From Candidatus Rifleibacteriota bacterium (GTDB taxonomy: Bacteria > Muiribacteriota > Ozemobacteria > Ozemobacterales > Ozemobacteraceae), in contig JADFZL010000003.1 of NCBI GenBank assembly GCA_015232575.1, forward strand, positions 192,001-256,000: a DNA stretch of 64,000 nt, written 5' to 3'. How positions within the stretch are numbered: the first letter of the stretch is position 1; each line of letters begins with the position of its first letter. Made by a program: the position numbers and the translations under genes. Shown here piece by piece: positions 3,032-31,876 of this stretch. The notes under the pieces were generated by a model. The model worked only from the letters and a program-made list of their open reading frames with translations, made no database searches and had not been told where the DNA came from.

Positions 3032-3090
3032 AACGACCCTTACCTTATTCAAGGCATAACCATGGACAGGGTAAGGGTTGTCGTTTTATG
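3032..3090. terminator. Hairpin AACGACCCTTACC...GGTAAGGGTTGTCGTT followed by TTTTAT
   Basis: 13-bp inverted repeat read directly. The T-run is on the + strand. It overlaps the selD stop codon. Confidence 0.4.
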
Positions 3091-7362: not shown

Positions 7363-9321
7363 CTATTCCTCCTGTTTTGGTTTGTTGATATTCGTTTTCA
7401 AAAACCTGAAATCGCCGTCTCTTCTGGTCAAACCTTCAGCATCAAAGTGTGCAAGCAGCAGCAGAGAAATCTTTCTATTTCCATTAACTAAATCTCTGAA
7501 ATCACTGACTTTTATGCCTTCTTTTTGTCCAGAAAGCTTTTCAATCAGTTTATTTCTGCAAGCACTAACAACCGAGGAATGAACATAACTGTCTTCGATT
7601 TTAATTATTTTTCCGGAAGAGACAAAGTGATGAAGTATTGCTTTCAGTTCTTTTTCAGCAATATTTTCTTTGTCAGCCAGAGATTGTATTTGGCTTGAGA
7701 GCGGGGTTTGCATTCCGCATTCCAGGAAGTAATTTTCCATCACCCGAACATTTTTTGCTGTTTTTGGATCAACCTTTCCTGTGTCATCAGCTGCAAACCA
7801 TGTTTTTGAAGATTCACGAAGTTTTTCTTTTTCAACAAGACCATTTAATATAGCCAGAAGGATCTCATCTGAAGATGATTTCTTTTCGAGCTTTAGTGTA
7901 CTTCTTATTTCATCAATGTTAATTCCTTTTTCAGAAAGCGGATTTCTCTTTCTGAAATCTTTAACTGCGGTTAAAATTCCGTTTCTGATATTTTCAAGAC
8001 ATATCTGTGAAACCAGCACCGGAGAGTCTTTTGTGTCGTATCGTACAATTCCTCTTAAAATTCTACTGTCTACTAACCTTAAAATACTATCAATGGAAAT
8101 ATTCAGCTTTTCTGCAATTTCCCTTACCATCATGGGCTTAAGTGATTTTCTTACTTCAAGTGATATAAGTTCAGAAAGTTTATTTTTTGCAACGAGTTCA
8201 AGTTCATTAATTAGTTTTTCAGGTCTTCGCCTGTGATGAAGCGGGGCAGCATCAATTATTTCTCCGCCGCCAATGGTTAAATCACAGGACGAATTTCGTA
8301 TTACAAATTTATCTCCATGTTGAAGGTAGATCGGCGTTTCAAAATGAATTTGTACAAGTGCAGATTCGCCGGTAGTAATTCTATTTTTGTTTATCAGGTG
8401 AATTTTTACCTGATGTTCGTAAGTACCGGTGTGAAAAATTACCTTTGACCAGATTCCAAGTTCACACTTTTTGGCGTACACATTTAATTTCGCATCTGCA
8501 ATGAGCGCATTTTTCAGTATTCTGTCTGATATTATCAGTCCGCGAGAAAATTCAGCTTTTTCAAGTCCGACAAGATTTATTGAAGCTCTGTCGCCAGCTT
8601 GAACTGCATGAACTTCCTCGCCATGTCTTTCCATTCTTCTGACTCTGAGTTCGCGCGGATTCTGGGACAAAAGAAATACATTGTTTTCCTTTTCAATTTT
8701 TCCGCCGATTACTGTTCCGGTTACAATTGTTCCGAAACCGCTTTTGCTGAATATCCGGTCAATGTACATGCGGAAAATGCCCTCAGGTGAACGGCTTTCG
8801 GAAGCTGAATAAATTTTCTGGATGGTATCTTTAAGTTCTGCAATTCCCTGACCGGTTTTTGCAGAGACTTTAATAATGGGGGAATCTTTCAGGAAAGAGT
8901 TACTAAGTAAATCAATAACATCAATTTCGCAGAGTTCAAGGAGTTCGTCATCTACCAGATCTGATTTGGTAAGTAAAACAATGCCTTTTTTTATTCCTAG
9001 GATTTCCATGATCTGGAGGTGTTCGATGGTCTGAGGCATTACGCTGCTGTCGGCAGCTATGACAAGTAGAACAAAGTCAATACCTGCTGCACCGCTGACC
9101 ATTGTATGGATAAAATCACGGTGCCCTGGTACATCAATGATTCCGATTTTTCCGTCATCGGGCATTGGAAGGCTTGCAAAGCCAAGGTGAATGGTGATTC
9201 CGCGCTCTTTTTCTTCTTTGTGCGTATCGCACTCAATGCCAGTGAGAGCCTTGATTAATGCTGTTTTTCCATGATCGACGTGACCCGCCGTTCCCATAAT
9301 GAGGTGTTTCACGTCCGCCAC
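7363..9321 (-). CDS. selB: Selenocysteine-specific elongation factor SelB
   Basis: GTPase motifs (GHVDHGKT, DVPGH, TKSD) plus a long C-terminal winged-helix extension. 652 aa. Confidence 0.9.
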   Translation of the reverse strand: MADVKHLIMGTAGHVDHGKTALIKALTGIECDTHKEEKERGITIHLGFASLPMPDDGKIGIIDVPGHRDFIHTMVSGAAGIDFVLLVIAADSSVMPQTIEHLQIMEILGIKKGIVLLTKSDLVDDELLELCEIDVIDLLSNSFLKDSPIIKVSAKTGQGIAELKDTIQKIYSASESRSPEGIFRMYIDRIFSKSGFGTIVTGTVIGGKIEKENNVFLLSQNPRELRVRRMERHGEEVHAVQAGDRASINLVGLEKAEFSRGLIISDRILKNALIADAKLNVYAKKCELGIWSKVIFHTGTYEHQVKIHLINKNRITTGESALVQIHFETPIYLQHGDKFVIRNSSCDLTIGGGEIIDAAPLHHRRRPEKLINELELVAKNKLSELISLEVRKSLKPMMVREIAEKLNISIDSILRLVDSRILRGIVRYDTKDSPVLVSQICLENIRNGILTAVKDFRKRNPLSEKGINIDEIRSTLKLEKKSSSDEILLAILNGLVEKEKLRESSKTWFAADDTGKVDPKTAKNVRVMENYFLECGMQTPLSSQIQSLADKENIAEKELKAILHHFVSSGKIIKIEDSYVHSSVVSACRNKLIEKLSGQKEGIKVSDFRDLVNGNRKISLLLLAHFDAEGLTRRDGDFRFLKTNINKPKQEE

Positions 9322-10724
9322 CTCTCGAAAACGGCTTTTTCGATGATTGATGCGATATATGGAATATCGTCCTCGTCGATTGTAAGTACATCAAAAACCA
9401 GTTCGCCCTGCCTGAGTATTCCCAGTATAGGCTTTTCAACGTTGAGAAGGTTGTGAAAAACGCGCGTTGCAAAGTCAGAGCGTTTCTGTTGAGACTTTTC
9501 TGACGAAGAAATTACAACGCCGAAACTTTTAATTTCAAGGTCGGGAAGGGTGCCACCGCCGCATTTTCCGGTAGTTTCAATTATTTCGGAAGAAATATTT
9601 TTTTCCTGCAGTTTATCATACAACAGTTTGGCTTTCTGATGGAGCTGTTTGTCGGTAGAATTCAGCATGGCAAATAGAGGAAGATTTTCTGCTATTTTCT
9701 TTTCATCCAGATAACACCTGGCAACGCTTGTCAATGTAGTAATGGTAAGCTTACAGACTCGTAAAGCCCGCATCAGCGGAGCTTTACTTAATCTACCAAC
9801 CAGATCTTTCCGTCCGCAGATTATTCCGGATTGCGGTCCACCGAAAAGTTTGTCGCCGCTGAAGAGAACCAGGTCAACTCCGCTTGATAAGGCGGACTTT
9901 ACATCGGGTTCATTTGAAAGCGGTATATTTTCCGGCTTGTACAAGAGTCCCGAACCGATATCATAAACGACAATCATTCCCCTTTTTTTTGCAAGTTCGA
10001 CAAGATCATCAAGTGACACTTCTTCAGTGAAACCATTGATCGAATAATTCGATTTATGCGCCTTAAATAAAATTTTTGTGTCGGCGGTAATAGCATTTTC
10101 ATAGTCAGAAATTCGTGTTCTGTTTGTTGTTCCGACTTCAATCATTTTTGCGCCTGAAGTTCCCATGATATCAGGAATTCTGAATGAACCGCCTATTTCT
10201 ATTAATTCACCGCGTGAAACAATGACTTCTTTATTTTTTGCAAGAGTACTTAGAGTTAATATGAGTCCGGCAGCGTTATTATTTACCACCAGAGCTTCTT
10301 CTGCGCCGGTAATATACTTTAGAATGGAATTAACATGTACGCTTCGGCTTCCACGGGTACCAGTTTCAAGATTCAATTCAAGGTTGGAATATCCGGACAG
10401 TGTTTCTGTGAGTTCTTCAAATATTCTTTTCCCGATAGGTGCTCGGCCAAGGTTTGTATGAATCAGAATTCCGGTAGCATTTATAACCCTGCGCAGAGAA
10501 GGACTGGATATATCTTTCGATACCTTTATAGCTTCTTCGATAATTTCATCTGAGCCTGGAACATCATCAAACTGATCATCAAGAATGCTTTTTCTAAGGG
10601 AATCAAGTGTTGAACGAAGCGAATGTTTAATTGTTTCAGAACCATATAAAGCGACTGCCGCAGATATTTTTTCATCCTGCAGAAGCTTATCAACGCCCGG
10701 AATCAATCGGAGTTTCTCTTTCAT
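9309..10724 (-). CDS. selA: L-seryl-tRNA(Sec) selenium transferase SelA
   Basis: SelA hallmark NATGILIHTNLGRAP; PLP-enzyme. Likely start ATG 10724 (MKEKLRLIPGV). Overlaps the selB start. Confidence 0.85.
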   Translation of the reverse strand: MKEKLRLIPGVDKLLQDEKISAAVALYGSETIKHSLRSTLDSLRKSILDDQFDDVPGSDEIIEEAIKVSKDISSPSLRRVINATGILIHTNLGRAPIGKRIFEELTETLSGYSNLELNLETGTRGSRSVHVNSILKYITGAEEALVVNNNAAGLILTLSTLAKNKEVIVSRGELIEIGGSFRIPDIMGTSGAKMIEVGTTNRTRISDYENAITADTKILFKAHKSNYSINGFTEEVSLDDLVELAKKRGMIVVYDIGSGLLYKPENIPLSNEPDVKSALSSGVDLVLFSGDKLFGGPQSGIICGRKDLVGRLSKAPLMRALRVCKLTITTLTSVARCYLDEKKIAENLPLFAMLNSTDKQLHQKAKLLYDKLQEKNISSEIIETTGKCGGGTLPDLEIKSFGVVISSSEKSQQKRSDFATRVFHNLLNVEKPILGILRQGELVFDVLTIDEDDIPYIASIIEKAVFERWRT

Positions 10725-10786
10725 ATTTTCCTGAAAATAATTAAATGCAGTCAATTATTGAATGATTGCATTTCAATAAAAATCAT

Positions 10787-10878
10787 CAGAGAGGGCAGGA
10801 ATCGAACCTGCCACAGACGGTATTATCCGCCCGCTACTGGTTTTGAAGACCAGCTGAAACACCAGTCCCGTCCTCTCC
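10787..10878 (-). tRNA. selC: tRNA-Sec (selC), anticodon UCA
   Basis: Reverse complement reads GGAGAGGACGGGACUGGUGUUUCAGCUGGUCUUCAAAACCAGUAGCGGGCGGAUAAUACCGUCUGUGGCAGGUUCGAUUCCUGCCCUCUCUG. It has a CUUCAAA anticodon loop, a long variable arm, a GGUUCGAUUCC T-loop and a ~92-nt length typical of tRNA-Sec. It lies immediately upstream of selA. Confidence 0.85.
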
Positions 10879-10972
10879 ATGCTTGTCTGTTAAGCGGACA
10901 AAATACTAAATGAAAAGAAACAAAAAGTCAACGAGTATTTTAATAATGAATTGAAAGCTGAATCATGGATTA

Positions 10973-12271: not shown

Positions 12272-12550
12272 TCATACCTTCCTTGCTTTACTTCGAAATT
12301 TGGGTGTTAGAAGCGGGATTAAGCATCGTAAAGCCCTATTCACAGATTCTGAATCCGGAAAATAGGTTAGAATATCTGGTTCAATAATTACTGCTCCTTC
12401 CTTTGGAAGCACCTCTTTTAAAACAGTAATACCGTCAGCCTCATGAACAGTTATAGTATAACCAGCTTGCATGGCTCTATGATGCTTGCCACGCACTCCA
12501 CCTGTAAAATCATATTCATCGCGGATTTTTGTATCCTCTATTTCCGTCAT
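12272..12550 (-). CDS. Putative BrnA-like antitoxin (partner of BrnT)
   Basis: 92-aa ORF starting at an ATG immediately after the BrnT TAA stop (TAAATG). This is the classic brnT-brnA order. Confidence 0.5.
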   Translation of the reverse strand: MTEIEDTKIRDEYDFTGGVRGKHHRAMQAGYTITVHEADGITVLKEVLPKEGAVIIEPDILTYFPDSESVNRALRCLIPLLTPKFRSKARKV

Positions 12551-12835
12551 TTAAATACTCCTTTCTTCATAAAATCTTCGCTCTGATGGGGTTGCCTTAC
12601 GGCAACTGATGATGCGTATTTGCGACTTGCGTTCAGTATAAACTACGACCAGCACGCGATTTTTGTCAGAGTCACCGATGTCAATAAGTCGCTGCTCAAC
12701 TTCCGAGTGATCAGGATCGGTCATCGTTATTGAAAAAGGATCAAGAAAGACCGTGGTCGCTTCATCAAAACCAACCCCGTGCTTTTTGAGATTCTTTTTG
12801 GCCTTTTCTCCATCCCATTCAAAGTTAATTTTCAT
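12551..12835 (-). CDS. brnT: BrnT-family toxin (DUF497, RelE/ParE-fold ribonuclease)
   Basis: 94 aa. The WDxxKxxxNxxKHGV N-terminus is characteristic of BrnT. Confidence 0.7.
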   Translation of the reverse strand: MKINFEWDGEKAKKNLKKHGVGFDEATTVFLDPFSITMTDPDHSEVEQRLIDIGDSDKNRVLVVVYTERKSQIRIISCRKATPSERRFYEERSI

Positions 12836-15632: not shown

Positions 15633-16247
15633 ATGGCAAAAACCGTTGATGCACGCGGATTAGCTTGTCCTCAGCCCGTTCTTCTGGCGAAAAAAGCCAT
15701 TGAGGAAAATGAGGAAGTCAAAATTCTTGTTGACAACGAGACAGCGGTTGAAAACATCCTCAGAATTGCTGCCAAAATGAACTGCAAGGTTCAAGTGAGT
15801 GAATCGCAGGGAAACACTCGGGAAGTAATGATAAAACGATCAACTGAAACATCTGTTTCAGTTATTGCTGAATCTGAAAAAGCGTGTATTGCAGATTCTG
15901 TGAAAAACAAGCGTAAGGTAGTGATTGTTTTGTCAGATAATTGTATGGGTAGGGGCGACGATCAATTAGGGGATATTCTGATTCGAAGTTTTCTGCATAC
16001 GATTTCAGAAATGTCTGTTAAACCAGCAAAGATAATATGCTACAATGCAGGTGTAAAGCTCGCAGCAAAGGGTTCGTCCGTAATTGATGACCTTCGCCGA
16101 CTGTCGGAAGTTGGGGTAGAAATTCTTGTTTGCGGAACCTGCGTTAAATTTTATGATATTGCCGATCAGATTGGTGTGGGGATTATTTCAAATATGTATG
16201 ATATTGCTGATTCTCTAACAAATGCAGATCATGTCCTCAAACCTTGA
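15633..16247 (+). CDS. yedF: Selenium metabolism protein YedF (long form: TusA-like N-domain + DsrE-like C-domain)
   Basis: N-terminal GLACPQP TusA motif and a C-terminal DsrE/DsrF-like domain. ~200 aa, matching the selenium-associated YedF architecture. Confidence 0.7.
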   Translation: MAKTVDARGLACPQPVLLAKKAIEENEEVKILVDNETAVENILRIAAKMNCKVQVSESQGNTREVMIKRSTETSVSVIAESEKACIADSVKNKRKVVIVLSDNCMGRGDDQLGDILIRSFLHTISEMSVKPAKIICYNAGVKLAAKGSSVIDDLRRLSEVGVEILVCGTCVKFYDIADQIGVGIISNMYDIADSLTNADHVLKP

Positions 16248-16493: not shown

Positions 16494-16544
16494 AAACAAA
16501 AACGCACAGGAATGAAACCTATTTCGTGTGCGTTTTTGTTTTAA
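16494..16544. terminator. Bidirectional intrinsic terminator (AACGCACA...TGTGCGTT flanked by A-run and T-run)
   Basis: Inverted repeat with flanking homopolymer runs, lying between the convergent DUF3343 (+) and fdhA-Cys (-) genes. Confidence 0.6.
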
Positions 16545-16553
16545 TGAAAAATG

Positions 16554-19235
16554 CTACGCTTTTTCCAGTTTACATGCGCAGACTTTGAATTCCGGGATCT
16601 TTGCTTCCGGGTCGAGTGCATTTATGGTCAGTTTATTGGCAGGGGCCTCTGAAAAATGGAAAGGCACAAAAGCCGTACCCTTGGGAATTCGATCTGTTAC
16701 GAAAGCTTTTGTTGTTATGTTTCCTCTGCGTGTTGTGACTTTTATGTTATCACTGTTAGATATTCCCAGACCTTTGGCATCTTCGACTGAAATCATTACG
16801 TGTGGACCTGCGAGATTATTCAGTCCCTCGGATTTTCTTGTCATGGTTCCGGTGTGGAAGTGCTGTAGAACTCTTCCTGTTGTAAGATAAACCGGATAAT
16901 CATTGTCAGGTATTTCTGCGGGGTTTTTGAATGGAATCGGAAACATTGCACCTTTGCCCCTGGTAAATTTTCCAATATGCAAAACAGGGGTTCCCGGATG
17001 CTCTTTTGTTGGACATGGCCAATGCAGGCCATTTCCAGCAAGCCGTCTGTAATCCATTCCTGCGTAGCTTGGAGTGCACTTTGCTAATTCATTAAAAATA
17101 TCTTCTGCTGAGTTATATTTCCAATTGTGACCCATTTTATTGGCCAGAAGTTGATGAATCTGCCAGTCATCCTTTGCTTCTCCGGGTGGCTCAACAGCCT
17201 TATATAATACTTGTACCCTTCTTTCTGTGTTGGTAAATGTACCAAGCTTTTCCGGCCACGTGGTAGCAGGAAGTACAACATGTGCAAGTTTTGCTGTTTC
17301 TGTAAGGAAAATATCTTGTACAACAAGAAAATCAAGTTTATTAAGACCAGCTTCGACATGATGAAGATCAGGGTCACTAAGCATTGGATTTTCACCCATG
17401 ATGTAGAAAGCCTTCATTTCACCGTTGTAAGCTTTGTCGATTGCTGTTGTAAGGGTCAATCCGTTTTCGGCACTAAGTTGACAACCCCAGAATTTTTCAA
17501 ATTTTTCTTTAATTTCGGGAAGGATAACTTTTTGATACCCTGTGTAAACAACAGGCAAAGCTCCAACATCGCAGGCGCCCTGGACATTTGATTGTCCTCG
17601 GAGAGGGTTAACTCCTCCGCCAATTTTTCCCATATTACCACAAAGCATTTGGAGGTTTGCACACGATTTTACATTATCCACACCTGTGGTATGTTGCGTA
17701 ATACCCATAGAATAGTATATTGCAGCTGTACCTGCTTTTCCAAACATCTGAGCAATTGCCTCAAGAGTTTTTGCAGGAATGCCAGAAATCTGTTCGACAT
17801 ACTCTGGAGAATATTTTTCAACCTCTGCTTTCAGTGCTTCATATCCTTCACATCTTTCGGCAATAAATTCTTTGTCTTCCCAACCGTTCTTTATGATGAC
17901 ATTCATAATTCCGTTAAGAACCGCAACATCTGTCCCAGGTCTTTGTGAAGCGTATATTTTTGCATAATTTGCCATTTTTATTCGTTTGGGATCAATAACA
18001 ATTATCTTCATTCCATCTTTTGCTGCTTTTTTGAGACGCGCACCAATAACCGGGTGTGTTTCGGAGGTATCTGAGCCGATAATAAGTGCAACATCACTTC
18101 TACCTATTCCAGCATAATCATTTGTCATTGCACCCGAACCAAAAGATAATGCCAGACCGGCAACTGTTGATGCATGGCACAATCGGGCACAATGATCAAC
18201 ATTGTTTGTACCGATTACGGTTCTGATGAATTTTTGAAAAGTATAGTTTTCTTCATTCGTTACTTTAGCGGATGAAAAGCCCATTATTGAGTTTGCACCA
18301 TTCTTTTGCTTAATATCAGTTAGCCTCGTTGCAATTATATCAAGAGCTTCATCCCAGGAGGCTTTTCTGAATGATCCGTCGTCAGTTTTGATCAGTGGAG
18401 TTGTCAATCTATCCTTATGATCAACAAAATCGTAGCCAAAACGTCCCTTTACACACAGCATACCGTTGTTAGACGGTGAGCCTTCCAAACCATTTACACG
18501 AACGATTTTGTTCTGTTTTGCATCAACATGAATTTCCATCTGACATCCAACACCGCAATAAGGGCAGACGCTGACGACTTTTTTTGTGTCCCAGTAACGC
18601 GCCATTCCTTTGGCTTTATTTTCTGTTATTGCACCCACGGGACAAATTTGAGAACATTCACCACACTGAACACAACTAGAATCACCCATTTTCTTGTCGT
18701 CATCAAAAATGACTTCTGTTCTGTGTCCCCTGTATCCAAAATTCAAAACATCGTTTGTAACAGTATTTTGACAGGCAGAAACACATCTTCCACAAGCGAT
18801 GCATTTGTTGCGATTAACCTGAAGAAATTCGGAACTATCATCAATATTCGGTTCAAAATCTGCATAATTCAGTGATGGCTTTTCAATGCCGAGATAATAA
18901 GCCGCATCCTGAAGTTCGCACTTTCCATTTTGCTGGCAGGCGATACAATCATGCGTTCCATTCGAAAGTAGAAGATCAATAACAAGTTTCTGCCCTTCCA
19001 AAGCTTTTTGTGATTTTGTCTGAATATTCATTCCTTCTTTAACAATCACAGAGCAGGATGTCTGAAGTCCTTTCATTCCTTCAACTTCCACGACACATGC
19101 ACGACATTTCCCTGCAACGCCCACCTTTTCGTGATAGCATAGAGAGGGAATATAAACTCCGTTTTTTCTTGCTGCCAGAAGAATGGTTTGTCCATCTTCA
19201 ACATTCAGTTTTTTTCCATTAATGAAAATTTGCAT
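16554..19235 (-). CDS. fdhA: Formate dehydrogenase catalytic subunit, Cys-containing paralogue (N-terminal 2Fe-2S/4Fe-4S NuoG-like module + Mo/W-bisPGD domain)
   Basis: 893 aa. N-terminal ferredoxin-like Cys clusters and the molybdopterin oxidoreductase core. The active-site segment reads VDHCARLCHASTVAGL, with Cys where the paralogue has UGA. RBS GGAGGAA. Confidence 0.85.
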   Translation of the reverse strand: MQIFINGKKLNVEDGQTILLAARKNGVYIPSLCYHEKVGVAGKCRACVVEVEGMKGLQTSCSVIVKEGMNIQTKSQKALEGQKLVIDLLLSNGTHDCIACQQNGKCELQDAAYYLGIEKPSLNYADFEPNIDDSSEFLQVNRNKCIACGRCVSACQNTVTNDVLNFGYRGHRTEVIFDDDKKMGDSSCVQCGECSQICPVGAITENKAKGMARYWDTKKVVSVCPYCGVGCQMEIHVDAKQNKIVRVNGLEGSPSNNGMLCVKGRFGYDFVDHKDRLTTPLIKTDDGSFRKASWDEALDIIATRLTDIKQKNGANSIMGFSSAKVTNEENYTFQKFIRTVIGTNNVDHCARLCHASTVAGLALSFGSGAMTNDYAGIGRSDVALIIGSDTSETHPVIGARLKKAAKDGMKIIVIDPKRIKMANYAKIYASQRPGTDVAVLNGIMNVIIKNGWEDKEFIAERCEGYEALKAEVEKYSPEYVEQISGIPAKTLEAIAQMFGKAGTAAIYYSMGITQHTTGVDNVKSCANLQMLCGNMGKIGGGVNPLRGQSNVQGACDVGALPVVYTGYQKVILPEIKEKFEKFWGCQLSAENGLTLTTAIDKAYNGEMKAFYIMGENPMLSDPDLHHVEAGLNKLDFLVVQDIFLTETAKLAHVVLPATTWPEKLGTFTNTERRVQVLYKAVEPPGEAKDDWQIHQLLANKMGHNWKYNSAEDIFNELAKCTPSYAGMDYRRLAGNGLHWPCPTKEHPGTPVLHIGKFTRGKGAMFPIPFKNPAEIPDNDYPVYLTTGRVLQHFHTGTMTRKSEGLNNLAGPHVMISVEDAKGLGISNSDNIKVTTRRGNITTKAFVTDRIPKGTAFVPFHFSEAPANKLTINALDPEAKIPEFKVCACKLEKA

Positions 19236-19262
19236 AAATTCCTCCAGTATTGTTATTTAATA

Positions 19263-19305
19263 ATGAAAAAAGACAAAACGGCATTAAGCATGCAGTTTTG
19301 TCTTT
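19263..19305 (-). promoter_or_regulatory. Terminator-like hairpin in the 5' leader of fdhA(Cys), ~30 nt upstream of its RBS (possible attenuator)
   Basis: The minus-strand RNA reads AAAGACAAAAC-ugcaugcuuaaugcc-GUUUUGUCUUUUUUCAUUAUU, an 11-bp stem plus U-run. The upstream ~600 nt is non-coding. Confidence 0.45.
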
Positions 19306-19912
19306 AAATTTTTTTGACAAAAAAGAACTACAAATACGAAAAAGTATTACTTTTTGTTTATTGGCGAGACCCGCCGTTTCGATAAGGTGATTCATAGCTT
19401 ACACCTTATAAAAACAGCATTTTTCAAGAACAACCTTACATTATTATTATGAAACATTTATATTGTACACAGAACAAAAGATTGAAGACATTAAAGTTAC
19501 CAGCGCAGAGGAGAGGTAACCGGTAATGATCTTTCCAATTTATTGTTGTCGCCTGCTTTACTAAGTTAAAACCTCTTATTAACTGAAATCTCTTTAATAG
19601 AATCGCAATTTTCATATTGTATAAACAGATTCAAAAGTGTATGTACGAATTTTATAACCCGAATTTACGGAAAAGTCAAATTATCTGATCATCTTTTCAT
19701 GCAATTCGTATTACCACATTCCCTGTTACAGGTATCATTGATTCATCAAATAATTCAATCTGGAAAAAACTTTTTATAAACCTATCATGTAGTTCGTCAG
19801 ATTGTGCCTGAGACCGCGTTAGAAGAAGATTGTTGTACTCTACGGCTGAAAAGGTATTCTAAATAACCCATGATGATAGAAACTCTGAATAAAAAATTAA
19901 GCATTTAATTGA

Positions 19913-19950
19913 AAAAAACACAGGAAGTGCTTTCCTTCCTGTGTTTTTTA
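19913..19950. terminator. Bidirectional intrinsic terminator downstream of fdhA(Sec)
   Basis: AAAAAACACAGGAAG-tgcttt-CTTCCTGTGTTTTTT. Confidence 0.65.
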
Positions 19951-19971
19951 AACTAATGGCTAATGAAAATA

Positions 19972-22656
19972 CTATGCTTTTTCCAGTTTACATGCGCAGA
20001 CCTTGTATTCCGGTATTTTTGCTTCCGGATCAAGTGCGTTAATGGTTAGTTTGTTGGCAGGAGCTTCGATGAAGTGGAAAGGCATAAAAGCAGTTCCTTT
20101 AGGAATTCGCTTTGTAACGAAAGCCTTAGTGGTAACGCTGCCGCGGCGGGTTGTTACTTTAACGGTTCCACTGTTTGAAACGCCTAGTTCAACGGCATCT
20201 TCTACTGAAATCATTACATGAGGTCCGGCAAGATTATTCAATCCTTCGGATTTTCTTGTCATGGTTCCGGTGTGGAAGTGCTGTAGAATTCTTCCGGTTG
20301 TCAGATAAACCGGATAGTCTTTGTCGGGTAATTCAGCGGGATCTTTGAATGGAATTGGGAATAATGTCCCTTTTCCCTTGGTGAATTTACCAATATGAAG
20401 AACAGGAGTACCAGGGTGTTCTTTTGTTGGACATGGCCAATGCAGACCTTTTCCTTCAAGTCTTTTGTAATCTAATCCGGCATAGCTCGGAGTGCATTTG
20501 GTCAATTCATCAAAGATATCTTCTGCGGTATTATATTTCCAGTTGTGACCCATTTTATTGGCCAGAAGTTGATGAATCTGCCAGTCATCTTTTGCTTCCC
20601 CGGGTGGTTCAACGGCTTTGTGCAACAATTGTACACGGCGTTCAGTATTAGTGAAGGTACCAAGTTTTTCGGGCCATGTACTGGCAGGAAGTACAACATG
20701 TGCCATTTTAGCTGTTTCCGTAAGGAAAATGTCTTCGACAACCAGGAAATCAAGCTTTTTGAGGGCTTCTTCAACATGGTGAAGATCTGGATCACTCAGC
20801 ATCGGATTTTCACCCATAATGTAGAATGACTTTACTTCTCCCTTGCCAGCTTTGTCTATGGCAACTGTAAGCGTTAATCCATTTTCAGCACTGAGCTGAC
20901 AACCCCAGAACTTTTCGAACTTTTCCTTGATTTCAGGAAGTGTAACTTTCTGATAAGCAGTGTAAACGACTGGAAGTCCGCCAACGTCACATGCGCCCTG
21001 GACGTTTGACTGTCCACGCAGCGGATTAACACCACCACCAACTTTACCCATATTGCCACAAATCATTTGCAGATTTGCACAAGATTTAACATTGTCAACA
21101 CCAGTGGTGTGCTGGGTAATGCCCATTGCGTAATAAATCGCTGCTGACTTTGCTTTTCCAAACATTTCTGCAATTGCTTCGAGGGTTTTTGCCGGGATAC
21201 CAGAAATCTTCTCAACGTGCTCAGGAGTGTATTTTTCTACTTCTGCTTTCAACGCTTCAAAACCTTCACATCTTTCAGCGATGAATTCTTTGTCTTCCCA
21301 GCCATTCTTGATGATTACATGCATAATTCCGTTAAGAACAGCAACATCTGTACCTGGTCTCTGAGCGGCATAGATTTTGGCGTAATCTGCCATTTTAATT
21401 TGTTTGGGATCAATAACAATTATTTTCAACCCATGTTTTGATGCCTTTTTCAAGCGGGCAGCAATTACCGGATGGGCTTCAGATGTATCGGAACCAATTA
21501 TTAGAGCAACTTCACTTTTACCAACTCCTGCGATATCATTTGTCATAGCTCCAGAACCAAAAGATGCGGCCAGACCGGCCACAGTGGAGCTGTGTCATAA
21601 TCGCGCACAGTGATCGACGTTATTCGTCCCTATCACTGTGCGAAAGAACTTTTGAAAAGTGTAGTTTTCTTCGTTTGTAACTTTTGCTGAAGAAAAACCC
21701 ATTAAAGAATTTGGACCATGTTTTTGTTTAATTTCAGAAAACTTTGTCGCTACTAATTCAATTGCTTCATCCCATGAAGCTTTTCTGAAAGAGCCATCAT
21801 TGTTTCTGATTAAAGGTGTAGTAAGTCTTTCCTTGTGATCTACAAAGTCATATCCAAAGCGGCCTTTTACACAAAGCATACCGTAATTGGATGGGGCGCT
21901 TTCAACGCCGTTGACCCGGACAATCTTGTTGATTTTCCGGTCGACATGAATTTCCATCTGGCAACCTACACCACAATAAGGACAAACTGAAGTCACTTTG
22001 TCAGTTTCCCAGTAACGCGCCATTCCTTTTGCTTTTTTCTCAGTTATTGCGCCAACTGGACAAATCTGAGAACATTCACCACACTGGACACAGGTGGAAT
22101 CACCCATCTTCTTGTCATCATCAAAAATGACTTCAGTGTTGTGTCCTCTGTAACCAAAATTCAAAACATCGTTTGTAACAGTATTCTGACATGCAGAAAC
22201 GCATCTTCCACAAGCGATGCACTTGTTTCGATCGACCTGAATAAATTCTGAGCTGTCATCAAGATTCGGTTCAAAATCAGCATAGTTCAATGAAGGTTTT
22301 TCAATGCCAAGATAATATGCGGCATCCTGAAGTTCGCACTTGCCGTTTTGCTGACAGGCAATACAATCGTGCGTTCCATTAGAAAGCAGAAGATCAATAA
22401 CAAGTTTCTGACCATCCACAGCTTTCTGGGATCTCGTCTGAATCTTCATTCCCTCTTTCACAATTACTGAACAGGATGTCTGAAGACCTTTCATCCCTTC
22501 AACCTCTACTACGCAGGCTCGGCATTTCCCTGCCACGCCAACCTTCTCATGGTAACAAAGAGAAGGAATATAAATTCCATTTTTCCTTGCGGCCTGAAGA
22601 ATGGTTTGCCCTTCTTCAGCCTGCAATTGCTTGTCATTGATGGTAATTAGCATCAA
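19972..22656 (-). CDS. fdhA: Formate dehydrogenase catalytic subunit, selenocysteine-containing (UGA-Sec at 21597..21595); the track shows it as two ORFs
   Basis: ORFs 21595..22656 and 19972..21582 are in the same frame, separated only by TGA. The joined translation VDHCARL-U-HSSTVAGLAAS aligns with the Cys paralogue's VDHCARL-C-HASTVAGL. A SECIS-like structure follows the UGA. Confidence 0.85.
21541..21594 (-). ncRNA. SECIS-like stem-loop immediately 3' of the fdhA UGA
   Basis: The RNA reads CACAG-CUCCA-CUGUG, then a 7-bp stem AGCUCCA...UGGAGCU enclosing GGCC-GGUCU-GGCC. The equivalent region of the Cys paralogue lacks this complementarity. Confidence 0.5.
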
Positions 22657-22763: not shown

Positions 22764-23450
22764 TTAGGATATACAGCCTGTCAGATCAGATTTCGAAAGA
22801 GCATATTTAAAAAATACTGACCTTGTGTTAAAAGAACCGCTATCTGAATTATCGACTGCAAAATTATAATCTTGTGGTACATTTATATTGAAAAGTATTT
22901 TTTCCCAGTCCATGTCAGAATTGCGAGCATCATATTCTTTGACTGAAACTTCAGAAAAAATAGACCTGATTGAAAACAATCCTGCACTTATAGCTTTATG
23001 CGTTGCAGGGAGACAATTCGTTGAATAAAGCGAAAACAATGGATTCAAACCACCGATAGTTCTTGGAATCACAACATCCATTTTTTCAGAAATACTCAGA
23101 AGAAAGGACGCAGCAGATTCTGAAATAAATGGCATGTCACAACCTGCAAGAAGAGCATAATCAGTATTTACATGATCAAGCCCGGTCATAAGCCCTCCCA
23201 GAGGTCCAGTGCAGAGGCGATCTTCAATGAAGTTAAAACCATCATTTTCTGGAAACTTTTCTCCTTCTGGAAAGCCAACAATATGAACTCTCTGGGTAAA
23301 ACAGGCAAGTTTCTTTGCGACATATAACCACATAGGAAAGCCTTGCCAGGACAGGAACTGTTTTTTTCTCCCCATTCTGATACTTTGTCCACCGACAAGC
23401 AAAAGTGCTTCAATTGGCAATCGGCAGTTTTTTTCATTTGTATCAGTCAC
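22764..23450 (-). CDS. mobA: Molybdenum cofactor guanylyltransferase MobA-like
   Basis: LLVGGQSIRMG motif typical of MobA. 228 aa. Confidence 0.7.
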   Translation of the reverse strand: MTDTNEKNCRLPIEALLLVGGQSIRMGRKKQFLSWQGFPMWLYVAKKLACFTQRVHIVGFPEGEKFPENDGFNFIEDRLCTGPLGGLMTGLDHVNTDYALLAGCDMPFISESAASFLLSISEKMDVVIPRTIGGLNPLFSLYSTNCLPATHKAISAGLFSIRSIFSEVSVKEYDARNSDMDWEKILFNINVPQDYNFAVDNSDSGSFNTRSVFFKYALSKSDLTGCIS

Positions 23451-23533
23451 TTGTTTTGTCCATCACTTTAATATTTCGAGTTACAGAAAATTCTAACATA
23501 ATCAATAATTAGTGTCAAAAAAGAACCCGGAGC

Positions 23534-24331
23534 TCATGAAACGCGCCATGAATGTGTATAAACGTTGAACCGTTCTCCTCTTGTAAAACCAATGGTAGTA
23601 AGATTAAGTGAATCAGCAAGCTGCAATGCTCCGGAAGTTGGTGCTGAAGGAGAAATTAGTATGGGAAATTTACCTCTGACCGCTTTTGTAACAATTTCTG
23701 TGCTGATTCTTCCTGTTTCCAGCATTATCGCTTTTGAATCTGATGGCCATCTGTTTTGCAGTTGCCACCCCAGAACCTTATCAACAGCATTGTGTCTGCC
23801 TATATCATCACAGACGAAAAGAATGTTATCGTTTTCAGCAATGGCAGCTGAGTGAACTCCGCCCGTTTTCCTGAAAGTAGATGATGCATTCTGAAGTTTT
23901 TTAACCAGTGAAAGAACTACATCTGAAGATATTCTTACATCAGATTCTATTTTCTGAAAAAATTTTGAATATATCGGAGAAACGGTAGTTAAACATCTAC
24001 CACAGCCTGTTGCGACAGATCGTACTGAATTAAAAAGATTTCCCTGTAAGCCTTCTTTCAGTATAATCTCAATCGAATTTGTCCGTTCGGAATAATTAAC
24101 ACTGTTAACGTCGCTCAAATTTTCTATTATACATTCACTGAAAAGAAATCCCAGTGCAAGCTGTTCTATGTAAGTCGGATTATATATAAGACGTGCAATT
24201 TCATTTCCGTTTACAAAAACAGCTAAAATACTTTCTTTTATTATCAGATCATCAATTTGAGAAAATTTTCCATTTTCAAATTTTTTTGCCTGATAATTCT
24301 CTATTGCAAATTCACTGCATTTTTCAACCAT
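23534..24331 (-). CDS. fdhD: Formate dehydrogenase accessory sulfurtransferase FdhD
   Basis: FdhD family signature (GGVHSAA...DIGRHNAVDK). Confidence 0.8.
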   Translation of the reverse strand: MVEKCSEFAIENYQAKKFENGKFSQIDDLIIKESILAVFVNGNEIARLIYNPTYIEQLALGFLFSECIIENLSDVNSVNYSERTNSIEIILKEGLQGNLFNSVRSVATGCGRCLTTVSPIYSKFFQKIESDVRISSDVVLSLVKKLQNASSTFRKTGGVHSAAIAENDNILFVCDDIGRHNAVDKVLGWQLQNRWPSDSKAIMLETGRISTEIVTKAVRGKFPILISPSAPTSGALQLADSLNLTTIGFTRGERFNVYTHSWRVS

Positions 24332-24413: not shown

Positions 24414-26132
24414 TTATTTAATCAATGCTTCAAATTCATGTCTGAACTTTTGGACCATCGCTTCGATTGGCATTGCAAAAGCATCACCAAGCGGACATAG
24501 AGTAAGCCCTTTTATTTTTCCGCACATTTTTAGAATTGTGTCAATATCAGACTTTGAGCCGTTACCATGAAGAATTCTCTTGATAAGAGCTTTTACTGTG
24601 CTGGAACCTTCGCGACATGGTGTGCATTGACCGCAGGATTCGTGTGCATAGAATTCAATAGTGCGATATGCAACTTCGGGAATCGAAACAGTATCATTAA
24701 TAACCATGATTCCGCCAGAACCAAGCATTGTTCCTGCCTTCTGGCAACTGTCATAATCCATCTTCAATTCGTTAATTTCGGAAGCAGTCAAGATCGGTAC
24801 AGAAAGACCACCAACGATTACACCTTTAATTTTGCCTTTTACTCCGCCTGCTGCATCAAGAATTTTCTTAAGCGGTGTTCCAAGTGGGAATTCAAATGCT
24901 CCCGGTTTATTTACATGGCCACTTACACCATAAATTTTGGGGCCGTAATTACCGACAGTTCCGATCTTTTTGAATTCATCTGCGCCTTTTTCAATGATAA
25001 CCGGTACCAGAGCCAAAGATTCGACATTGTTGATAATGGTTGGACATCCATATAGGCCCTGAATTGCAGGGAAAGGTGGCTTGAGTCTTGGATTTCCACG
25101 ATTTCCTTCAAGGGATTCCATAAGCGCGGTTTCATCACCACAAACATAAGATCCTGCGCCTTTGTGAACTATAATTTCAACGTGCTTCAATAATCCGGCA
25201 TCTTTTGCCTGTTTAACTGCTTTTTCAAGAATATCGGCTATCCACCTGAATTCGCCACGTATGTATATGAAAGATTTTTTTGAACCTATAGCGTATGCTG
25301 ATATAGCGATGCCTTCAATAAGAAGATGCGGATCATATTCCATTATCTGTCGATCTTTGAATGTGCCCGGCTCTCCTTCATCTGCGTTGCAAATCAAATA
25401 AACTGGTTTTGTGTTATTCTTTGGAAGAAAGCTCCATTTCAAGCCTGTCGGAAAACCTGCTCCACCTCGACCTCTAAGCTGTGCATCTTTTACCATGGAA
25501 ACAATTTCAGCGGGTTCAATCGTCAGGGCTTTTTTCAAAGCCTCATATCCGCCATTTTTTTGATATACAGCCAAGTCAGTTGCTTTCTTATTTCCGCGAT
25601 TTTTAAGAAGGACATTACATTCAGATGCAAAAACCGATTCATCAACCTTTTCAGGGACTTTTCCCTTCCTGAGTTCTGCGATGATTTTATCAATTTTTTC
25701 GGTTGTCATGTTTTCATAGTAGATATCATTGATTTGTACAACCGGGCATGTCCCGCATGAGCCCAAATCCTGAACTTCTGTCAAAGTAAAAAGTCCGTCA
25801 GAAGTTGTTTCTCCGGGTTTTATTCCAAGTGAAGTCTTGAGGTGATTTAAGATTTTGTCGGAACCAGCCAGAAATGCAGGAATGTTGACATCAACCTGAA
25901 TATGAAATTTTCCGATTGGTTTGGTATTAAACATTGTGTAAAAAGTGGCAACCCCAAACGCTTTTCCTTCTGTAACGCCAATCTGGGTTGCAACTTCCTG
26001 TATCATTTCAGCTGACAGATGATTTCCGTTATCTCTCTGTGCAAGATCTAAAGCCGGTATCAATGCAGAAATACGGCTTGGGTAGCTATTTGCAATTGAA
26101 TCTATCTTTTCTCTAACGCTTGTATTCATCAA
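24414..26132 (-). CDS. fdhB: Formate dehydrogenase NAD(P)H-binding subunit (fused NuoE-like thioredoxin-like 2Fe-2S + NuoF-like FMN/NAD/4Fe-4S)
   Basis: 572 aa with NuoE-like N-terminal and NuoF-like core motifs (GRGGAGFPTG, CGQCTPCREG). Confidence 0.8.
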   Translation of the reverse strand: MMNTSVREKIDSIANSYPSRISALIPALDLAQRDNGNHLSAEMIQEVATQIGVTEGKAFGVATFYTMFNTKPIGKFHIQVDVNIPAFLAGSDKILNHLKTSLGIKPGETTSDGLFTLTEVQDLGSCGTCPVVQINDIYYENMTTEKIDKIIAELRKGKVPEKVDESVFASECNVLLKNRGNKKATDLAVYQKNGGYEALKKALTIEPAEIVSMVKDAQLRGRGGAGFPTGLKWSFLPKNNTKPVYLICNADEGEPGTFKDRQIMEYDPHLLIEGIAISAYAIGSKKSFIYIRGEFRWIADILEKAVKQAKDAGLLKHVEIIVHKGAGSYVCGDETALMESLEGNRGNPRLKPPFPAIQGLYGCPTIINNVESLALVPVIIEKGADEFKKIGTVGNYGPKIYGVSGHVNKPGAFEFPLGTPLKKILDAAGGVKGKIKGVIVGGLSVPILTASEINELKMDYDSCQKAGTMLGSGGIMVINDTVSIPEVAYRTIEFYAHESCGQCTPCREGSSTVKALIKRILHGNGSKSDIDTILKMCGKIKGLTLCPLGDAFAMPIEAMVQKFRHEFEALIK

Positions 26133-26500
26133 GAATATTCTCCTGTTAAAATTCTGCCAATTCGAAAAAAAAGAACAAAGTTAAACCCATTGATTTTCAT
26201 TCACCACTCAGCATAATAATAATGAAAATAACTTTGTGAAATTTATCATAAATTGGATATTTTTTCTATCAGTTTCTTACATATTATTTTTTTTCCCGAT
26301 ATATCCCTTATATTTTTATTGACAAATACAAATGTTTCGTGTGAAAATACAAAAATAATACCATTCAGCAAAAATGATTGAAAACAGTGAAAATGCCTTT
26401 TGCACAATTATTTTTAGGTGATATCAGCACCTGAGAAAAAGTGCGAATTTCGTTTTTGTTTTTTGAAATAAAAGAAAACACAAAAAGGAGTTTTGCAGGT

Positions 26501-26887
26501 ATGGGAAAAAAAATTCTTCTTGTTGATGACGATGTTGATTTTGTAAACCTGAACAGAGAAATACTTGAAAATGCGGGTTATTCCGTTTCTTTTGCATATA
26601 ATGGTGAAGAAGGTATGAAGGCAATTAAAGCTTCAAAACCAGATCTTCTCGTTCTAGATGTAATGATGACAACAATAGTTGAGGGATTTGATTTTGCAGA
26701 TAAACTTCAGGAAATCCCGGAATTCAAAGATATTCCTGTCATTATGCTGACCGGAATGACAAAAACTCCTCAATTCCCCGAAAGTTTCCAGAAAGTCCTC
26801 GGAAGAACATGGACAGCTGCTGCATATCTTGAAAAACCAGTGAAACCAGAAAAACTTGTCAGTGAAGTTAAGAAAATCCTGGGTTGA
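26501..26887 (+). CDS. Stand-alone response-regulator receiver domain protein (CheY-like)
   Basis: KILLVDDD...LLVLDVMM receiver motifs. Start ATG 26501 after AAAAGGAG; the track ORF starts earlier. Confidence 0.75.
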   Translation: MGKKILLVDDDVDFVNLNREILENAGYSVSFAYNGEEGMKAIKASKPDLLVLDVMMTTIVEGFDFADKLQEIPEFKDIPVIMLTGMTKTPQFPESFQKVLGRTWTAAAYLEKPVKPEKLVSEVKKILG

Positions 26888-29599: not shown

Positions 29600-31876
29600 A
29601 TGTTTCGGGTCATTCTTGTTTCAATTTTTTCAGTTTTTATTGTATTTCCGGGAATTCTTTCAGCGGCAGATGAAGAAAATTATTCCGGGCGTTACACTCT
29701 GGACGAAATAGTTATAGAAGAAAGTCGTCCGGAACTCGAAAGCAATGGCAGAATGAGAACGATTTATTCTGAAGAATTGCGCGAAAGAGGAGTGAGGACT
29801 CTGGATGAAGCGCTTAAACTGATTCCTGGCCTGCTTATAAGAACAGGTGCCGGTGGAGTTCCAAGAATTGATATCCGCGGATACAAAGCCAGGCATGTTC
29901 TGCTTCTTCTGGACGGCGTTTCCTTAAATTCAACTTATGACGGACAGCTTGATCCGAGAATTATTCCAGTTGAGATTATTAAAAAAATTAAAGTCACCTA
30001 CGGAAGCGGATCTTCACAATATGGTTCAGGTGCACTTGGTGGAGTAATTAACATAATTACCAGGCGTGGTGAAGCCAAAAATGAAGTTCGATTACAGGAA
30101 GAAGTCGGAACTGGACTTAAACACTATGGAAGTTTCAATGCTTCGGGCAAAGATGGCGACTTCGATTATTTCCTTGGAGTAACCAATAAGCAGCGTGATG
30201 GCCTGGAACTTTCTGATTCGTTTTCACCAACAAATGCTGAAAATGGTGGAAAACGTGAAAACAGCGATTTCAGGAACTCTTCTCTCTTTCTTCGAATTGG
30301 ATTAACTCCGTCTGAAAAATGGCAGTGGGGCTTAACTCTGGCCCGAATGACCTCTGACTACGGGTTATCACCATTAACTATTGATAACAGCTCTGATATT
30401 TTTGCAAACAAAATCAAATATGAGAGAGTTGATAATTCTGACAGTCATATCTTTCAGCTTACAACTTCTTATGATTGCGCTGGTCCATGGGAGTTCAGAT
30501 TGTGGTTTTTTCAGAATTCTCAGATAGAGGAAACCAACGGCTACGACAACGCAAAATATGAAGGTATGTCTGACCCGGCAATAAAAGGTACATATCATCA
30601 GGGTTCAAAGGTTCTTATTCGTGGCGGAACAGTTCAGGCTGACAGAGCTATGGGAAATGACAGCTATCTTACAGTAAGTCTTTCGACAAAACATGATGAA
30701 TGGAATGCTGCTGGAAAAATCAGAGACGTTCAGGTAAATTCAAGTCTTCTTGGAAGTATCATGTCCGCAGGCGGTAAAGGCACTGGTGGCGGAAGCGGCG
30801 GTGGCGGTGGAAGTTCAGGAACTGGAGCAGACGACGGTTCAAGTGGTATGACGGGAACGACTGGAACCACGGAAACTACAGATGGAGATTCTGTCTCAGG
30901 AACTGATACTGGTGTAACTACTGAAAGCTCGAATACTGGTACAGATACATCTTCTGGCACAGGCACTGGTGGCGGCGGTGGAAAAGGAACCGGAGCTGGA
31001 ACAGAAAAAAACACAGTAAAACAGTATGATATTCGCAACTTTGAAAACATTCAAAGCCAGGAAATAAATACTCTTGCTCTGGAATATAACTGCAAACCGA
31101 TAGATAAATTGAACCTTTCCGTTAGCGGCAATTTGTGCAATGCCAGCAGTGATAAGCGTGATGATGAATCTCAAGGTGAATTCAGCCTTGGTTTTTCACG
31201 TGATCTTTCTGAAAAAACCCTTCTTCATGGAGTATTGGCACGCAAGATAAGATTTCCCACTGTTCAGCAGTTGTATGATGAAACAGGTGGCAATCTGAAT
31301 CTTAAAACGGAATGCTCAATGAACTACGAACTCGGAGTATTGCATGAAATGTTCAAAAACAGCCGTTTCGGCGTTACATTATTTCAGAGTGCTGTTGATA
31401 ATTACATTGAAAAACAAGATAGTACAAGTAGATATGAAAATTTCGACGAATATCTGTTTAAAGGTGTTGAGTTTTCCCTGAATCATAAATTTAATTCACC
31501 ATTAACTCTTGAGACAACGCTTTCACTTATGGACTCAGAAGATCAAACTTCAAACAGCGGTCGTGATGAACTTCAATACAGACCCAAAGTGAAATGTACT
31601 CTTTCAGGTACTTATAATTTCCACAATGGAAGTCTTGTACATCTCGAAATGCTTCATCTGAACGGACAGCACTATTATTCGCGCACATTGCCGCTTCAAA
31701 AGGCGTCTTTAAATAATATTACTGTTACAAATTTGCGCGTATCTAAACCGATCAGATATTACAGTCTGGTTATCTATGCCGGAGCTGATAACGTTTTCGA
31801 TCAGAATTACGAAACTGCATACGGAGTTCCGGCTGCCGGAAGATTCGCTTACACAGGAATTCAGGCAACTTTCTGA
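29600..31876 (+). CDS. TonB-dependent outer-membrane receptor with an internal Gly/Ser/Thr-rich insertion
   Basis: Signal peptide, plug domain (IPGLLIRTGAGGVPRIDIRGY), and a C-terminal aromatic terminus (AYTGIQATF). Low-complexity insert GKGTGGGSGGGGGSSGTGADDGSSGMTGTTGTTETT... at roughly 30760..31010. Confidence 0.8.
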   Translation: MFRVILVSIFSVFIVFPGILSAADEENYSGRYTLDEIVIEESRPELESNGRMRTIYSEELRERGVRTLDEALKLIPGLLIRTGAGGVPRIDIRGYKARHVLLLLDGVSLNSTYDGQLDPRIIPVEIIKKIKVTYGSGSSQYGSGALGGVINIITRRGEAKNEVRLQEEVGTGLKHYGSFNASGKDGDFDYFLGVTNKQRDGLELSDSFSPTNAENGGKRENSDFRNSSLFLRIGLTPSEKWQWGLTLARMTSDYGLSPLTIDNSSDIFANKIKYERVDNSDSHIFQLTTSYDCAGPWEFRLWFFQNSQIEETNGYDNAKYEGMSDPAIKGTYHQGSKVLIRGGTVQADRAMGNDSYLTVSLSTKHDEWNAAGKIRDVQVNSSLLGSIMSAGGKGTGGGSGGGGGSSGTGADDGSSGMTGTTGTTETTDGDSVSGTDTGVTTESSNTGTDTSSGTGTGGGGGKGTGAGTEKNTVKQYDIRNFENIQSQEINTLALEYNCKPIDKLNLSVSGNLCNASSDKRDDESQGEFSLGFSRDLSEKTLLHGVLARKIRFPTVQQLYDETGGNLNLKTECSMNYELGVLHEMFKNSRFGVTLFQSAVDNYIEKQDSTSRYENFDEYLFKGVEFSLNHKFNSPLTLETTLSLMDSEDQTSNSGRDELQYRPKVKCTLSGTYNFHNGSLVHLEMLHLNGQHYYSRTLPLQKASLNNITVTNLRVSKPIRYYSLVIYAGADNVFDQNYETAYGVPAAGRFAYTGIQATF

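Follow-up and report, generated by a model that had tools for sequence, protein, structure and literature searches.

Methanococcus possesses isoenzyme sets in selenocysteine (Sec) and cysteine (Cys) forms (Fru/Frc and Vhu/Vhc) with a LysR-type regulator, and the Cys back-up is induced when selenium is lacking. In the bacterium Treponema primitia, selenium limitation leads to more fdhF(Cys) transcript, and fdhF(Sec) transcripts end prematurely beyond the UGA codon, with translation uncoupled from transcription (PMC3892789). Acetobacterium woodii carries fdhF1(Cys) and fdhF2(Sec), which are 80% identical and belong to one gene cluster for the hydrogen-dependent CO2 reductase (HDCR); the two are presumably made in different amounts depending on how much selenium is available (PMC6288185). 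In the present study, we analysed a 64,000-nt stretch of DNA (hereafter the window; positions 192,001 to 256,000 of contig JADFZL010000003.1, assembly GCA_015232575.1) from a metagenome-assembled genome (MAG) of a Candidatus Rifleibacteriota bacterium, which contains a tandem pair of formate dehydrogenase catalytic-subunit genes, one of the Sec type (fdhA-Sec) and one of the Cys type (fdhA-Cys). The initial annotation of the window implied that such a compact bacterial example would be novel. Given the T. primitia and A. woodii pairs, the tandem is not new in kind, and it differs from them by its enzyme class, its phylum and the duplication of the catalytic gene only, with a long private leader.

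The window pair resembles that of T. primitia in that two formate dehydrogenase catalytic paralogues with a Sec/Cys ligand difference occur in one bacterium. However, the T. primitia enzymes are FdhF proteins of the FdhH/HDCR type, without the NuoG-like N-terminal domain and the NuoEF partner present here, and the window genes are directly in tandem, have their accessory genes in common and include a 677-nt leader with a terminator before the ribosome-binding site (RBS). In A. woodii, each FdhF of the HDCR has its own HycB partner gene, whereas here only the catalytic gene of an NAD(P)-linked FdhAB is duplicated. The Methanococcus sets are archaeal hydrogenases under a protein regulator and follow the same back-up logic as is proposed here. 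By analogy with T. primitia and A. woodii, the best reading of the locus is that fdhA-Cys is probably a selenium-independent back-up isoenzyme of fdhA-Sec. The two genes are as follows.

22653..19972, minus strand: fdhA-Sec, catalytic subunit, 893 aa, with an in-frame TGA as codon 353 at 21597..21595
19235..16554, minus strand: fdhA-Cys, catalytic subunit, 893 aa, with TGC as codon 353 at 18179..18177

All elements of the pair and its operon lie on the minus strand, in the order fdhB–fdhD–mobA–fdhA-Sec, a strong terminator, a 677-nt AT-rich spacer and fdhA-Cys. Both protein lengths were counted from the ATG behind each GGAGG; position 22656, given previously as the start of fdhA-Sec, begins an in-frame TTG that precedes the likely ATG at 22653 by one codon. 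The initial annotation had described two adjacent full-length copies in the same orientation, with about 80% nucleotide and 88% amino acid identity and U or C as the catalytic ligand, and the measured values agree: the proteins align without gaps, with 782 of 894 aligned positions identical (87.5%), and the genes share 2152 of 2682 nt (80.2%), the differences at codon positions 1, 2 and 3 being 85, 41 and 404. The ligand motif reads HCARL*HSSTV in the Sec copy and HCARLCHASTV in the Cys copy, that is, Sec or Cys followed by His. Single-frame translation of 22656..19972 yielded a full-length protein with the TGA at 21597..21595 as its sole internal stop. The mechanical list of open reading frames (ORFs) splits fdhA-Sec into 22656..21595 (353 aa) and 21582..19972 (536 aa); since gene callers divide Sec-type fdhA in this manner, such pairs can be easily overlooked in annotation. 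FdhA-Cys matched TIGR01591 (formate dehydrogenase alpha) with 878.3 bits against a cut-off of 666.25, and the occurrence of two full-length genes of this family side by side is far beyond chance.

Bacterial Sec insertion sequence (SECIS) elements carry G-U in an apical loop located 16–37 nt after the UGA. Such a hairpin follows the UGA of fdhA-Sec, and a remnant of it is present in fdhA-Cys.

21563..21585, minus strand: SECIS apical hairpin GUGGCC-GGUCU-GGCCGC of the Sec copy, loop beginning 18 nt after the UGA, −12.1 kcal/mol
18145..18167, minus strand: decayed SECIS remnant of the Cys copy, with the two outer pairs lost, −4.9 kcal/mol compared to −12.1 in the Sec copy

The fdhA SECIS hairpin was kept in all 43 distinct Sec-type sites collected, with synonymous positions frozen. 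In an alignment of 23 distinct sequences, 99.3% of cells were paired and two pairs showed compensatory changes, for example A-U in place of G-C, which couple a synonymous Val codon with the codon downstream; the covariation score was reached by none of 500 shuffles. A covariance model built from the sequences of fdhA Sec-type sites scored the Sec copy at 38.5 bits (E = 4e-9) and the Cys copy at 24.8 bits. The outer pairs of the Cys copy are broken by changes from GTG to GTT and from GCC GCA to GCA TTA. The SECIS is thus decaying in the Cys copy, as expected because the UGA is gone. The same model also matched 54778..54812 on the plus strand (16.1 bits, E = 0.026) inside an ORF without a Pfam family (54661..55752, 363 aa); with a 14-nt loop insertion and no in-frame UGA nearby, this match is probably due to chance.

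By its gene content, the window is a selenium island with a complete Sec machinery, and the organism can decode Sec; selA, selB, selC, a Sec-containing selD, yedE and yedF are all found within 16 kb.

10879..10787, minus strand: tRNA-Sec (selC), Rfam RF01852, 58.6 bits against a gathering score of 47
10754..9309, minus strand: selA, TIGR00474 above its cut-off
9321..7363, minus strand: selB, TIGR00475 above its cut-off
7359..6256, minus strand: yedE, TIGR04112 above its cut-off
15633..16247, plus strand, convergent with fdhA-Cys: yedF, selenium-metabolism sulfurtransferase-like gene, TIGR03527, 212 bits against a cut-off of 110
3086..4132, minus strand: selD, Sec-containing, TIGR00476, 354 bits for the part downstream of its UGA

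The UGA of selD is codon 18 (4081..4079; motif TAAG-U-AAK) and is followed by a SECIS hairpin, AUCCAG-AGUUG-CUGGAU, at 4065..4049, the loop of which begins 19 nt after the UGA. SelD is thus itself a selenoprotein, so that selenophosphate synthesis would depend on selenium supply. A gene of the TIGR01977 cysteine desulfurase family is also in the window. The Cys copy is present alongside the Sec system rather than in its place.

Several further genes in this region were observed. A LysR-type regulator gene (1164..2093, minus strand) lies near selD and gave a weak match to the selenium metabolism-associated LysR family (95.6 bits against a cut-off of 250); compared with the arrangement in Methanococcus, it scores below this cut-off and lies 17 kb away. 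In the related locus L009, a LysR gene lies between selD and yedE. A short TusA-like ORF (6054..6263, minus strand), 43% identical to the N-terminus of YedF, is located just downstream of yedE. Two abutting ORFs at 12272..12835 on the minus strand (94 and 92 aa), between the Sec machinery and the fdh genes, were considered as a split selenoprotein and rejected as such, since the stop is directly followed by an ATG and the ORFs are two small genes; they resemble a toxin–antitoxin pair.

Relatives of the pair were collected in a scan of one genome per GTDB species (45 loci) and a scan of JGI metagenomes (33 loci), 78 loci in total. The closest are from Riflebacteria, at 77–83% identity. Among the 45 genome loci, all relatives of at least 68% identity use TGA as the catalytic codon, and none is accompanied by a second, Cys-type copy within the fetched stretch; a few hold a second fdhA copy of the Sec type, and Sec-type fdhA sites also occur in several of the 33 metagenome loci. 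The exact FdhA-Cys protein is on record once, from a Candidatus Riflebacteria MAG, and the next full-length Cys-type protein among 5.8 billion proteins is only 66% identical. No second tandem Sec/Cys pair of the FdhA family was found in the 78 loci and in five contexts of the Cys-type homologues P0002, P0006 and P0012, all of which are single-copy at this position or hold Sec/Sec pairs. The two window copies group as sisters when whole proteins are compared by neighbour joining, and the Cys branch is the longer one; with the relative at locus L001 as outgroup, 52 amino acid changes were assigned to the Cys branch, compared to 31 for the Sec branch (p = 0.03). Since the close relatives are of the Sec type and the window copies are sisters, the Cys form descends from a Sec ancestor through a duplication specific to this lineage. 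Elsewhere in the family, single-copy Cys-type orthologues from Cloacimonadota (L022 11056 and L023 8129) keep an intact SECIS-type hairpin after a TGY codon, and another Cys-type fdhA, P0012 (L081/L082 6001..8691), lies directly beside selA–selB; these would be independent Sec-to-Cys replacements at different stages.

The phylogeny that the initial annotation had called for to date the duplication thus places the copies as sisters with the Cys form derived, whereas their mosaic divergence fits two histories as to age. FdhA residues 1–225, the N-terminal Fe-S domain, are 90% identical between the copies and 75% identical to L001, the nearest relative, whereas in residues 226–375, around the catalytic codon, the Sec copy is 86.7% identical to L001 and 83.3% to the Cys copy. 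The difference between the copies at four-fold-degenerate sites is 0.72–0.88 in the central segment, where it is saturated, and 0.31–0.57 elsewhere. This pattern fits either past gene conversion of the flanks sparing the Sec/Cys segment or a duplication about as old as the L001 split, and it suggests, from sequence comparison, an old conversion that spared the catalytic segment. Recent gene conversion was rejected: though synonymous divergence is uneven, no near-identical stretch is present between the copies, and any conversion is therefore not recent.

Both copies are under strong purifying selection and apparently functional. The dN/dS between them is 0.048 with a dS of about 1.5. Of 340 columns that do not vary among 23 other members of the family, four are changed in the Cys copy and two in the Sec copy, and all 23 family-invariant cysteines are kept in the Cys copy. 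The Cys copy, previously described as showing no sign of a pseudogene, indeed has an intact ORF, RBS and set of invariant residues.

The three genes upstream of fdhA-Sec lie on the same strand and were identified with Pfam and NCBIfam, placing the Sec copy in an operon with fdhB, fdhD and mobA as had been proposed.

26132..24414, minus strand: fdhB, NuoE–NuoF fusion diaphorase (beta) subunit, 572 aa, Pfam 2Fe-2S_thioredx, Complex1_51K and NADH_4Fe-4S
24331..23534, minus strand: fdhD, sulfurtransferase for formate dehydrogenase maturation, TIGR00129, 193.5 bits against a cut-off of 140.9
23450..22764, minus strand: mobA-like guanylyltransferase gene (bis-MGD cofactor synthesis), Pfam NTP_transf_3, 5.6e-25

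The mobA-like gene is matched by the NCBIfam MobA models, yet below their cut-offs. The window contains a single fdhB (counted by tblastn), fdhD and mobA each, and fdhA-Cys has no fdhB of its own. The Cys copy of FdhA contains the Pfam domains Fer2_4, NADH-G_4Fe-4S_3, Fer4_7 and Molybdop_Fe4S4, the N-terminal part forming a NuoG-like 2Fe-2S/4Fe-4S module. The domain content points to an NAD(P)-linked two-subunit formate dehydrogenase, in which a NuoG-fused alpha subunit of the Mo/W-bis-MGD type would work with a NuoE/F-like partner. The alpha subunits of Methylobacterium extorquens FoDH1 (7e5z/7vw6) and Rhodobacter capsulatus FdsA/FdsABG (6tg9) align with FdhA residues 3–890, and FdhB matches the beta subunit of the M. 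extorquens W-FDH (FoDH1; 7e5z_B), which has the same length of 572 aa. The solved M. extorquens and R. capsulatus enzymes are believed to be of the Cys type; unlike this believed Cys of the solved NAD-linked enzymes, the ancestral form in the Riflebacteria lineage is Sec.

A single-domain response regulator gene lies immediately upstream of fdhB both in the window (26441..26887, plus strand) and in L001 (7328..7729; 76% identical), divergently transcribed in both, and also by fdhB in two Cys-type loci, on the same strand (L079 3589..3972 and L080 3770..4153). Given its conserved position, this gene is a candidate for regulating the fdh operon. Of the sigma70-like sites in the region, the best one (23518..23490, minus strand; TTGACA-17-TAGAAT with TG, 11/12) falls in the interval from fdhD to mobA, which suggests an internal promoter for mobA–fdhA-Sec.

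With regard to transcription units, each fdhA copy is followed by a terminator.

19949..19913, minus strand: T1, intrinsic terminator ending the fdhA-Sec unit, perfect 15-bp arms followed by a U-run, −21.9 kcal/mol, z = −6.9
16537..16498, minus strand: T3, terminator after fdhA-Cys, paralogous to T1, −20.9 kcal/mol

T1 and T3 have TAGyATTTTCATTA and TTCCTGTG in common, and the 15 nt that directly follow the stop codon are likewise shared by the two copies. The RBS regions of the two copies also match (GGAGGGATTGATG and GGAGGAATTTATG); farther upstream, no similarity was found between the 3′ sequence of mobA and the leader. Given the paralogy of T1 and T3 and the common RBS, the duplicated unit was RBS, gene and terminator, with the spacer excluded. 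The downstream copy therefore arose behind a terminator and without a promoter.

As the initial annotation had stated, the Cys copy follows a terminator (19913..19950) and a non-coding leader of its own of about 680 nt, here T1 and a 677-nt spacer without an ORF longer than 59 aa. The leader contains the following features.

19912..19236, minus strand: non-coding spacer and leader of fdhA-Cys, 677 nt, about 33% GC
19418..19373, minus strand: P1, 16-bp hairpin, −19.7 to −21.3 kcal/mol, z = −3.9
19331..19313, minus strand: candidate antiterminator strand, which pairs with the T2 5′ arm when the nascent transcript is folded, 12 bp, about −8 kcal/mol
19305..19266, minus strand: T2, terminator-like hairpin (19305..19269) with U6, −17.4 kcal/mol, z = −6.0

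The three longest ORFs of the leader had no Pfam match. A search of the whole window with Rfam at the gathering score gave only tRNA-Sec, a permissive search of the leader gave unrelated families as the best matches (E at least 0.08), and no molybdenum cofactor (Moco) or other riboswitch was found in the leader with Rfam. Comparison of the leader with the window, the upstream operon and the 45 related genome loci by blastn and tblastx gave nothing; the leader as a decayed copy of mobA, fdhD or fdhB was thereby also rejected, as no similarity to these genes was obtained.

The 250 nt at the 3′ end of the leader fold better than shuffled sequences (z = −3.5). T2 is a 15-bp hairpin (16-bp arms, 94% complementary) that ends 20 nt before the GGAGG of fdhA-Cys (19245..19241), and no sigma70-like site of at least 9/12 was found between T2 and the ATG of fdhA-Cys. 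A terminator placed in this way is the usual signature of attenuation, and T2 thus looks like an attenuator. Together with the weaker competing pairing, T2 suggests that fdhA-Cys is off by default and released on demand by antitermination; in the folding model, the candidate antiterminator could work if stabilised by something.

Two strong terminators before fdhA-Cys and the lack of a convincing promoter in the leader would also fit an unexpressed Cys copy, a relic isolated by T1 and T2. The source being a MAG, the tandem might likewise be an assembly artefact, and the arrangement is in no other genome among those searched. However, dN/dS of this size over such a dS is incompatible with a long-silent gene, and the ORF, RBS and invariant residues are intact. 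As for an artefact, 80% nucleotide identity is too divergent for collapsed or mis-joined strain variants, and the junction is unique sequence within a 558-kb contig. Either form of this explanation is thus very improbable.

Considering these results, we propose the following scenario, returning to fdhA-Cys as a back-up isoenzyme. An ancestral Sec-type fdhA may have been duplicated in tandem with its RBS and terminator. In the downstream copy, a single base change would have turned UGA into UGC, after which the SECIS hairpin decayed, giving a functional monocistronic gene for a selenium-independent catalytic subunit. No separate fdhB, fdhD or mobA accompanies the Cys copy, which must therefore rely on the genes of the adjacent operon, and with the partner genes shared, the switch would exchange only the catalytic subunit of the two-subunit NAD(P)-linked Mo/W formate dehydrogenase. 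Under selenium shortage, by analogy with T. primitia, ribosomes would stop at the UGA of fdhA-Sec, and fdhA-Cys would be transcribed from a promoter in its own 677-nt leader. T2, before the RBS of the Cys gene, would compete with the weaker pairing, keeping the gene off by default until it is released by antitermination.

In this scenario, we infer selenium as the signal, the sharing of FdhB and attenuation at T2. Several results weigh against it. No recognisable selenium sensor was identified. The leader had no homologue in the 45 genome loci, the 33 metagenome loci or the set of 5.8 billion proteins with which its structures could be compared for covariation. T2 is far more stable than the candidate antiterminator (−17.4 compared to about −8 kcal/mol), so that the conditional part of the scenario is an assumption. 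The only promoter-like site in the leader (19469..19440) is weak, scoring 9/12 against a sigma70-like pattern, and Riflebacteria promoters are uncharacterised. A functional selenium switch is nevertheless plausible and the best-supported reading, fitting the Sec machinery, the purifying selection on both copies, the SECIS decay in the Cys copy and the separate, apparently gated unit; by analogy with the described pairs, expression dependent on selenium is predicted.

The two isoenzymes might instead be specialised for a factor other than selenium, such as Mo versus W, catalytic direction or affinity, or oxidant tolerance, with the leader answering that signal. A gene for a regulator with HTH_17 and PBP_like domains (31960..32838, minus strand) and an adjacent gene for a TonB-dependent receptor (29600..31876, plus strand) lie 6–10 kb from the fdh operon. 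Their proximity would favour such a specialisation, the domain pair presumably resembling that of oxyanion (Mo/W)-responsive regulators. A Cys enzyme has a lower kcat but also a lower Km; the faster Cys branch would fit new kinetic tuning, and the Cys variant of Escherichia coli FdhH has a lower Km (PMC6288185). However, the pair is defined by a single residue, namely the selenium ligand; the Cys gene is flanked by the Sec operon and the Sec machinery, and the leader contains no Moco or other riboswitch recognised by Rfam. No known metal-discriminating residue was identified either. Specialisation for a factor other than selenium is thus unlikely.

Within the selenium back-up scenario, the leader also offers a candidate for the sensor itself.

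19375..19363, minus strand: SECIS-like hairpin GGCG-GGUCU-CGCC (speculative), with the same pentaloop as the fdhA SECIS

A UGA that ends a 21-codon mini-ORF without a Shine–Dalgarno sequence (19457..19392) lies 20 nt before the GGUCU loop, compared to 18 and 19 nt in the two genuine SECIS of the window. The leader may read selenium status through Sec-tRNA(Sec), as a SelB-dependent 'selenocysteine attenuator' gating T2: the hairpin would be bound by SelB–GTP–Sec-tRNA(Sec), or would direct Sec-dependent read-through of the mini-ORF UGA, and either event would set the position of the ribosome and decide whether T2 forms, following the logic of trp attenuation applied to the 21st amino acid. A 4-bp Watson–Crick stem with a GGTCT loop, a pattern defined after the hairpin had been seen, occurs three times in 128 kb (both strands) against 0.39 expected; the three sites are the two fdhA sites and the leader hairpin, on the sense strand. 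The background of this pattern is similarly low in about 2 Mb of related loci, and forming the hairpin beside P1 costs only 2.1 kcal/mol. A precedent exists in the SECIS-like element of the E. coli selAB 5′-UTR, where a SelB quaternary complex reports the status of Sec-tRNA(Sec) (PMC13449736). That element, however, controls the Sec machinery itself and blocks translation next to the Shine–Dalgarno sequence, whereas the leader hairpin is a candidate only, shorter and about 130 nt from the RBS.

Other results speak against such a sensor. The fdhA-SECIS covariance model gave the leader hairpin 8.6 bits (E about 5, rank 8 in the window) and covered model positions 6–18 only, and the stem has 4 bp compared to 6–7 in real SECIS. 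The ATG of the mini-ORF, which has no Shine–Dalgarno sequence, is upstream of the start site of the only predicted promoter and so may not be transcribed. No homologous leader was found with which to compare the hairpin, and a local alignment of the leader with the SECIS region gave an unrelated 14-mer as its best match (p = 0.015), not the GGUCU hairpin. A SelB-dependent sensor in the leader is thus very doubtful.

Within the locus, only the leader, with T2 and possibly the SECIS-like hairpin, could yield something new. In the literature examined, no mechanism was found behind the rise of fdhF(Cys) transcripts in T. primitia, and a sensor in the leader, if true, would therefore be of wider interest. 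Under the proposed scenario, the locus would capture the steps by which such a pair evolves, from the duplication of RBS, gene and terminator through the change of UGA to UGC and the decay of the SECIS to the gain of a new leader. It may thus provide a clean, minimal example of a Sec-to-Cys back-up, in which the catalytic gene alone is duplicated and the partner and maturation genes are held in common, from the uncultured phylum Riflebacteria and the NAD-linked FdhAB class, the known bacterial cases being of the FdhH/HDCR type.

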